Part shown: one piece after another, positions 27,408 through 28,133 of the stretch
Position numbering within the stretch: the first letter of the stretch is position 1
Layout of the letters: every line of letters begins with the position of its first letter
NCBI RefSeq assembly: GCF_001677475.2
Contig: NZ_CP015229.1
Reading direction: 5' to 3' (one strand)
Origin: Escherichia coli
GTDB lineage: Bacteria; Pseudomonadota; Gammaproteobacteria; Enterobacterales; Enterobacteriaceae
DNA length: 64,000 nt
The notes under the pieces: model-generated
Told to the model about the DNA's origin: nothing
The model's input: the letters and a program-made list of their open reading frames with translations, nothing else
Database searches by the model: none
Position numbers and translations under genes: made by a program

Positions 27408-27424
27408 AAGTGGTCTGACCTGAT
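27408..27424. promoter_or_regulatory. FadR operator-like site upstream of fadI
   Basis: AAGTGGTCTGACCTGAT closely matches the FadR core TGGTCNGACC. Confidence 0.6.
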
Positions 27425-27561
27425 CATAGTCTTAACCATTTTTTTACATTTAGCCAAGTGGAGAAAAGGGAAAGTGGGAGCTATGACACAGAGATAAAAG
27501 TAGAAGAGAAAATAAAACGCCCCTGCCAGCAACTGACAGGGGCATACGTACCCGAGAGGAA

Positions 27562-27846
27562 TTAACGCAGACCCAGCTGGAAGATCAGCATTTCAGCTTC
27601 GCAGGCAAAAGTGAAATCGATATCCAGGCGCACACCGTCAGACTCTTCAGTGAAAGTCGGGGTGATTTTGCACGGTTCGGATTCCACGCTACGGGCTTTT
27701 TCAGTCAGCGCCGCCAGCGTTTGTTCTGCTTCTGCGCGGTTTGCAAACACGCGGCTATAAGACGCGGTGCAGTCGGAGTTGTCCATAATGGTGCCAACAT
27801 CCATACAGCAGCAAACCGGGGTTTCATCAGCACTACATTTACTCAT
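27562..27846 (-). CDS. yfcZ: UPF0381-family small protein
   Basis: 94-aa ORF from [25 protein letters not shown]...; track ORF carries an 8-codon upstream extension. Confidence 0.85.
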
Positions 27847-28091
27847 CGTTGATTTCCTCTGTATGTGCACCCAAGGTGCCAGATAAACGTTGTGGATATT
27901 TTACGCTTCCGGAAAGTGCTGCTCCAGTTGTTAATTCTGCAAAATCGGATAAGTGACCGAAATCACACTTAAAAATGATCTAAAACAAAATTCACCCGAA
28001 TCCATGAGTGCGCCACCTCCAAATTTTGCCAGCTGGATCGCGTTTCTTAGATCATATTTGAAAAAAGATAGAAACATACTTGCAACATTCC

Positions 28092-28108
28092 AGCTGGTCC
28101 GACCTATA
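28092..28108. promoter_or_regulatory. FadR operator-like site 1 upstream of fadL
   Basis: AGCTGGTCCGACCTATA matches the FadR core TGGTCNGACC. Confidence 0.6.
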
Positions 28109-28116
28109 CTCTCGCC

Positions 28117-28133
28117 ACTGGTCTGATTTCTAA
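28117..28133. promoter_or_regulatory. FadR operator-like site 2 upstream of fadL
   Basis: CACTGGTCTGATTTCTA: weaker half-matching FadR site 8 bp downstream of site 1. Confidence 0.45.

Follow-up and report, generated by a model that had tools for sequence, protein, structure and literature searches.

The analysed window is a 64,000-nt (64 kb) stretch of Escherichia coli DNA that contains the fadJ-fadI / yfcZ / fadL locus. The gene for 3-ketoacyl-CoA thiolase, fadI, is the first gene of the fadIJ operon and is followed by fadJ, fadL is divergent from it, and yfcZ, a DUF406 gene, is located between the two promoters (Table 1). The deduced FadI protein aligned over residues 1–436 with profile positions 1–436 of the 436-position NCBIfam equivalog NF006516, and the FadL protein is 99% identical to K-12 FadL, from which it differs at one residue. 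The region matched 5,425 of 5,426 complete E. coli genomes at 95–99% identity or better, with fadI, yfcZ and fadL annotated there. It is about 98.6% identical to K-12-like genomes, and since the best E. coli genome is 99.2% identical, the window derives from E. coli but not from K-12. The fadR gene is absent from the 64-kb window, and an Rfam scan of positions 26000–30000 returned zero RNA families.

Table 1 Positions of genes, operators and promoter elements at the fadIJ and fadL promoters, numbered along the window
Feature	Position	Strand	Basis or remark
fadJ CDS, second gene of the operon	23925–26069	−	ORF list and K-12 annotation
fadI CDS (3-ketoacyl-CoA thiolase), first gene of fadIJ	26069–27379	−	NCBIfam and K-12 annotation
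fadIJ-promoter FadR operator (fadI box)	27408–27424	.	Direct read and K-12 identity
Candidate fadI −10 hexamer TATGAT	27423–27428	−	Sequence and conserved block
yfcZ terminator hairpin	27545–27517		
yfcZ (DUF406), between the two promoters	27562–27846	−	NCBIfam equivalog and K-12 annotation
fadL CRP site AGTGAccgaaaTCACA	27952–27967	.	Inside K-12 probe fadL-CRP-site1; highly conserved block
Putative fadL −35-like hexamer TTGCAA	28080–28085	+	Within a conserved block; 19-nt spacer to −10
fadL FadR operator 1 (box 1), AGCTGGTCCGACCTATA	28092–28108	.	−25 to −9 relative to the start site
fadL −10 hexamer TATACT	28105–28110	+	Inferred from the start site at 28117
fadL FadR operator 2 (box 2), CACTGGTCTGATTTCTA	28116–28132	.	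−1 to +16 relative to the start site
fadL transcription start site	28117	+	Published distances mapped onto the window
fadL CDS	28218–29558	+	NCBIfam FadL equivalog NF007988, full-length match

Three 17-bp boxes resembling operators of FadR, the acyl-CoA-responsive repressor of the GntR family, lie in the non-coding DNA of this locus. The fadI box, which reads AAGTGGTCTGACCTGAT on the plus strand and ATCAGGTCAGACCACTT on the fadI strand, is located 28 nt upstream of the fadI ATG (27379). Boxes 1 and 2 of fadL precede the fadL ATG (28218) by 109 and 85 nt, respectively, are separated by 7 bp (28109–28115) and overlap no annotated gene. The first-pass annotation had reported these three motifs; direct reading of the sequence found all of them in place, the last one ending at 28132 rather than 28133. 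Its further statement that all three match the FadR core TGGTCNGACC holds for the fadI box and fadL box 1 and applies to only half of fadL box 2. This third motif, TGGTCTGATT, retains the left half-site plus GA (TGGTCTGAtt) without a full core match, so that its left half is consensus and its right half degenerate.

The non-coding status of the fadI box depends on the choice of the fadI start codon. The stop-free frame upstream of the ATG extends to 27592, and a longest-ORF call, starting at TTG 27532, would include the box and wrongly bury the operator in coding sequence. Several lines of evidence led us to reject this extension. The full-length FadI model begins at the ATG at 27379, which is also the start annotated in K-12, and a ribosome-binding site, GGGGAG, is present at 27385–27390. 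E. coli strains carry a frame-breaking 2-nt indel between the box and the ATG, and in other species the distance from box to ATG is, for example, 24, 25, 26, 27, 28 or 29 nt, with no multiple-of-three pattern. In addition, the yfcZ terminator hairpin falls inside the extended frame. After this reassessment of the start codon, based on the FadI model, the indel and the K-12 annotation, the sites remain outside coding sequence.

We next consider how specific the boxes are within the window. Both strands of the 64 kb together contain just two copies of the TGGTCNGACC core, at the fadI box and fadL box 1, compared with 0.23 matches expected from shuffled sequence, in which 3 of 100 shuffles reached two. 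Both exact matches fall within 553 nt of spacer upstream of two fatty-acid genes. Against the 17-bp FadR consensus aaCTGGTCnGACC(T/A)Gtt (PMC9329746), the fadI box matched at 14/16 positions, fadL box 1 at 13/16 and fadL box 2 at 11/16. We also scored all 127,968 positions of both strands with a log-odds matrix. Its training set comprised six published FadR sites, namely two of fadD and a single one for each of fadBA, fabA, fabB and fadE, and deliberately contained neither the fadL nor the fadI sites. The fadI box ranked second (16.3 bits), fadL box 1 third (14.2 bits) and fadL box 2 fifteenth (10.6 bits); rank 1 was the known fabB site at 8395–8411, itself a training member. The maxima of random sequences average 13.9 bits, so that this small matrix is only moderately discriminating by itself. 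Chance would produce about 13 matches of 10 bits or more, and the sequence of fadL box 2 alone therefore does not reach significance. A scan with curated FadR sites thus singled out the fadI box and fadL box 1 and left fadL box 2 within the chance range. Apart from the fabB site, all other matches in the top 15 lie inside a long ORF; the candidates at 18096, 19548, 52070, 2957 and 44287, among others, were rejected as further FadR sites for this reason.

The fabB site merits a separate description. This FadR activator site, GGCTGATCGGACTTGTT, is on the minus strand and precedes the fabB ATG (8328) by 67 nt, and the FabR-palindrome region follows it; relative to the K-12 probe one flanking base differs (ATTAATTGG versus ATTAAATGG). 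Together with the boxes at fadI and fadL, the window holds four FadR sites at three promoters.

Alignment with K-12 MG1655 showed that all three boxes, along with the entire yfcZ-fadL spacer, are base-for-base identical. The gel-shift probes fadL-FadR-site1 (GCAACATTCCAGCTGGTCCGACCTATACTCTCGCC) and fadL-FadR-site2 (CTCTCGCCACTGGTCTGATTTCTAAGATGTACCTC) match the window exactly. FadR bound these probes at about 50 nM, with similar affinity for both sites, and was released by long-chain acyl-CoA (Feng and Cronan, 2012, PMC3460868; Zhang et al, 2014, PMC4259882). The same papers describe the tandem FadR sites at K-12 fadL and report a modest repression of fadL by FadR in vivo (PMC3460868, PMC4259882). 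The first-pass annotation's proposal of a tandem pair at fadL, as in K-12, is therefore borne out by the identical spacer and by the identity of both boxes with the published probes. According to a 2022 review, fadL and fadIJ are direct targets of repression by FadR, whose sites there overlap the transcription starts (at fadI, a start site predicted genome-wide), and the induction of fadIJ by fatty acids depends on FadR (PMC9329746, citing Campbell et al, 2003). Both fadIJ and fadL belong to the conserved core of the FadR regulon, including that of Vibrionales and Shewanella (PMC5343134, PMC3223726). A text search of the literature gave no paper printing the sequence of the fadI box, and the probable assignment of this box to FadR draws on the review (PMC9329746), the matrix score and conservation. 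By analogy with the literature on the identical K-12 sequence, the fadL boxes of this strain would be expected to bind FadR and to be freed of it by acyl-CoA, and fadIJ to be induced in a FadR-dependent manner. The name 'anaerobic beta-oxidation operon', which the first-pass annotation had used for fadIJ, is historical and disputed: the operon is repressed anaerobically by ArcA and regulated like fadBA (PMC9329746).

To place the boxes in an evolutionary context, we collected 80 loci with a FadI query, using one genome per species; fadL is divergent next to fadI in 78 of them. The sample covers Enterobacterales, including Escherichia, Citrobacter, Salmonella, Enterobacter, Klebsiella, Kluyvera, Cedecea, Serratia, Rahnella, Yersinia, Hafnia and Photorhabdus. 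The palindrome GGTCNGACC was found upstream of fadI in 78/78 species, less than 50 nt from the ATG in 74, and fadL box 2 was likewise found in 78/78, at 78–92 nt from the ATG. In 73/78 species, a GGTCNGACC box is positioned exactly 24 bp upstream of fadL box 2. In an alignment of 72 species, no other 17-mer of the fadI spacer is as conserved as the fadI box (0.958, the mean of the spacer being 0.596), and fadL box 2 comes fourth among 355 17-mer windows (0.926 versus a spacer mean of 0.715); fadL box 1, at 0.865, reaches the 85th percentile, its losses being almost wholly confined to positions 1 and 2 and the central N (identity 0.11). Across species, the centre of the fadI box can be any of the four bases. 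The flanking half-sites are 0.97–1.0 identical, variation being found at the central N and the outer flanks. On sequence grounds, this combination of a variable central base and kept half-sites is the pattern expected of the FadR consensus, in which the central base is unspecified. In fadL box 2, the right half (GATTT) is also 0.9–1.0 conserved although it departs from the consensus, which points to further constraints, for instance from the start site or the initially transcribed sequence, and part of the conservation of box 1 (CCTATA) is explained equally well by the overlapping −10 hexamer.

Downstream of the operators, the fadL 5′ untranslated region (28133–28217) is highly conserved in sequence and length across the 72 species, the distance from box 2 to the ATG being almost always 84–88 nt. 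The small RNA RybB pairs with fadL mRNA (PMC9329746), and this pairing could explain part of the conservation.

Two published distances, mapped onto the window, locate the fadL start site at the same nucleotide, 28117: one counts 95 bp back from the ATG at 28212, the other 157.5 bp forward from the CRP centre (27959.5). DiRusso reportedly placed the fadL operators in 1993 at −25/−9 and −1/+16, in agreement with the start site derived here. The first four bases of the −10 hexamer TATACT are the last four of operator 1, and the hexamer is fully conserved in the 72 species. A scan for consensus sigma-70 promoters with 16–18-nt spacers returned one match (28026–28055), no more than expected by chance, and missed the fadL promoter, whose −35-like and −10 hexamers are 19 nt apart. 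The K-12 probe fadL-CRP-site1 corresponds exactly to positions 27939–27983; CRP activates the same fadL promoter that FadR represses.

On the fadI side, the last two bases of the candidate −10 hexamer TATGAT coincide with the first two of the operator, and the box likely overlaps the −10 and start region around a putative start site. A CRP-like sequence, TGTGTcatagcTCCCA, lies in a conserved block on the minus strand at 27475–27490, roughly 61–67 nt before the putative fadI start site. It may be the fadIJ CRP site that the review PMC9329746 attributes to Li et al (2019); the main text of that paper (PMC6390033) makes no mention of fadI.

Among E. coli genomes, 4,783/5,425 share an identical 53-nt segment spanning both fadL boxes; in those variants that were examined, the changes fall at position 2 and at the central base of fadL box 1. 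The 36 nt around the fadI box (27405–27440) are identical in 5,024/5,424 genomes. Downstream of the box, the A-tract at 27396–27407, which connects the fadI operator to the ribosome-binding site, is a variation hotspot: an exact match over 27396–27445 was found in only 186/5,424 genomes, and the tract is 2 nt shorter, with one substituted base, in K-12 and in one Shiga-toxin-producing E. coli (STEC) strain.

The fadL coding sequence showed variation of another kind. At least two deeply divergent alleles exist in E. coli, with 76% protein identity between the window/K-12 type (window 28218–29558) and that of the GTDB representative SCPM-O-B-8794 (L002:323-1663, minus strand). The differences appear clustered in blocks between well-conserved stretches, and between the same two genomes FadI is 99% identical and the promoter nearly identical. 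The N-terminal 250 residues of the window-type FadL are 94–95% identical to those of E. albertii and Citrobacter amalonaticus and about 74% identical to those of other Citrobacter. This distribution suggests recombination or diversifying selection on FadL, which is a phage-receptor protein.

Regulators other than FadR have to be weighed as readers of these boxes. The lactate-sensing LldR and the pyruvate-sensing PdhR belong to the same FadR subfamily of GntR regulators and recognise TGGT-N3-ACCA-type palindromes, and the boxes might be mainly their targets, with FadR not the principal factor. Genomic SELEX placed an LldR peak in the yfcZ/fadL spacer, both fadL boxes being listed as LldR boxes with 11/14 and 9/14 matches (PMC10272880), and a PdhR peak at fadI/yfcZ together with weak fadL binding; fad mRNA was also reduced in a pdhR mutant (PMC7660256). 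The SELEX peaks are, however, in vitro results, whereas binding of FadR to the fadL boxes and its release by acyl-CoA were demonstrated directly (PMC3460868, PMC4259882), and the genes concerned are fatty-acid genes induced by fatty acids through FadR (PMC9329746). The conserved GGTC/GACC half-sites with a free central base correspond to the FadR consensus, and the PdhR box proposed at fadI, cAgcGGTaaaACCtgac (7/14; PMC7660256), is a different and poorer sequence inside the fadI CDS at 27359–27375. Cross-binding may add to FadR control and nothing suggests that it replaces it; we regard LldR or PdhR as the main users of the boxes as very improbable. The FadR box located 50 nt from the proposed PdhR box is the better GGT-N3-ACC match, and, judged by its sequence, it may be what PdhR bound in vitro. 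A broader version, in which the three boxes are shared operators read by several FadR-subfamily paralogues (FadR, LldR and PdhR), appears to us doubtful. If it were true, the uptake of fatty acids and the FadIJ pathway would respond jointly to acyl-CoA, lactate and pyruvate through a single stretch of DNA. Selection for multi-factor or deliberately weak binding, and not only for affinity to FadR, might then account for the strict conservation of the non-consensus right half in box 2 and for the invariant 24-bp spacing.

The overlap with core promoter elements raises another explanation, namely that conservation of the motifs stems solely from the −10 hexamer, start site and initially transcribed sequence that they overlap, and that any likeness to FadR sites is incidental. 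Box 1 does end within TATACT, the start site falls inside box 2, conservation is high over the entire fadL promoter, as its spacer mean indicates, and the conservation of GATTT in box 2 is unexplained by FadR affinity alone. Promoter elements, however, need no GGTCNGACC palindrome, and this palindrome recurs at three places and also at fabB in the window, tolerating change precisely at the central N. Combined with the experimentally shown binding to identical sequence, this makes an incidental likeness extremely improbable. Chance matches without function would fit the random maxima of about 13.9 bits and the score of box 2, which lies where about 13 chance matches per 64 kb are expected. Against this stand the confinement of both exact-core matches to the 553 nt of spacer upstream of two fatty-acid genes, the retention of the boxes in 73–78 of 78 species at fixed spacing and their identity with experimentally bound K-12 sites; the conservation and this identity already refute the idea, and we assign it a vanishingly small probability.

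Taken together, we conclude that the boxes are almost certainly the three known operators of FadR at the fadIJ and fadL promoters. The FadR control of fadI and fadL put forward by the first-pass annotation agrees with the probe identity at fadL, the review, the matrix scores and the conservation. In the absence of long-chain fatty acids, a FadR dimer would bind each 17-bp imperfect palindrome through its winged-helix N-terminal domains and block RNA polymerase. Two dimers would be accommodated at fadL, the first over the spacer and the −10 hexamer (−25 to −9) and the other over the start site (−1 to +16); fadI would carry one dimer over its −10 and putative start region. Fatty acids entering through FadL would be activated by FadD, and the resulting long-chain acyl-CoA would bind the C-terminal domain of FadR, which would then leave the DNA and allow the CRP-activated promoters to fire. 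ArcA would add anaerobic repression. Occlusion of the polymerase is the repression mechanism we infer for this strain.

The operators, the tandem arrangement at fadL and the FadR control of fadIJ have been known, in the literature and in databases, for 20–30 years. The present result therefore carries little weight as a discovery, and its practical use is to confirm that this strain has an intact, K-12-like locus with correspondingly intact regulation. The rigid conservation of the boxes (78/78 species, with the fixed 24-bp spacing) makes them good positive controls for FadR motif scans.

Comparison with known systems places the three boxes within the FadR regulon. Relative to the K-12 fadL operators OL1/OL2 (DiRusso et al, 1993; Feng and Cronan, 2012, PMC3460868), the promoter is the same throughout and both 17-bp boxes equal the probes; the K-12 paper gives a gap of 8 bp between the sites, whereas we counted 7 bp between the 17-mers in the window. 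The K-12 fadIJ (yfcYX) site (Campbell, Morgan-Kiss and Cronan, 2003, via PMC9329746) is also a single site over the predicted start region, and its 17-bp box and the 60 bp upstream are identical; in the A-tract leading from the box to the ribosome-binding site, the window has 2 nt more than K-12 and one substituted base, so that the box-to-ATG distance is 28 nt compared with 26 nt in K-12. The operators of fadBA, fadE, fadD, fadH and fadM (repression) and of fabA, fabB and iclR (activation) share the consensus aaCTGGTCnGACC(T/A)Gtt. Repressor-type FadR sites of other genes have the same placement over the −10 and start region, whereas the fabB site in the window is upstream of its promoter and is used for activation. 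Two FadR sites are present at both fadL and fadD, in contrast to one at the other genes of the regulon. The boxes of LldR, PdhR and GlcC share a TGGT-N3-ACCA-like palindromic core, and the LldR and PdhR SELEX peaks fall in the same spacers; these regulators differ from FadR in their effectors (lactate, pyruvate and glycolate, respectively) and in the outer positions of their consensus.
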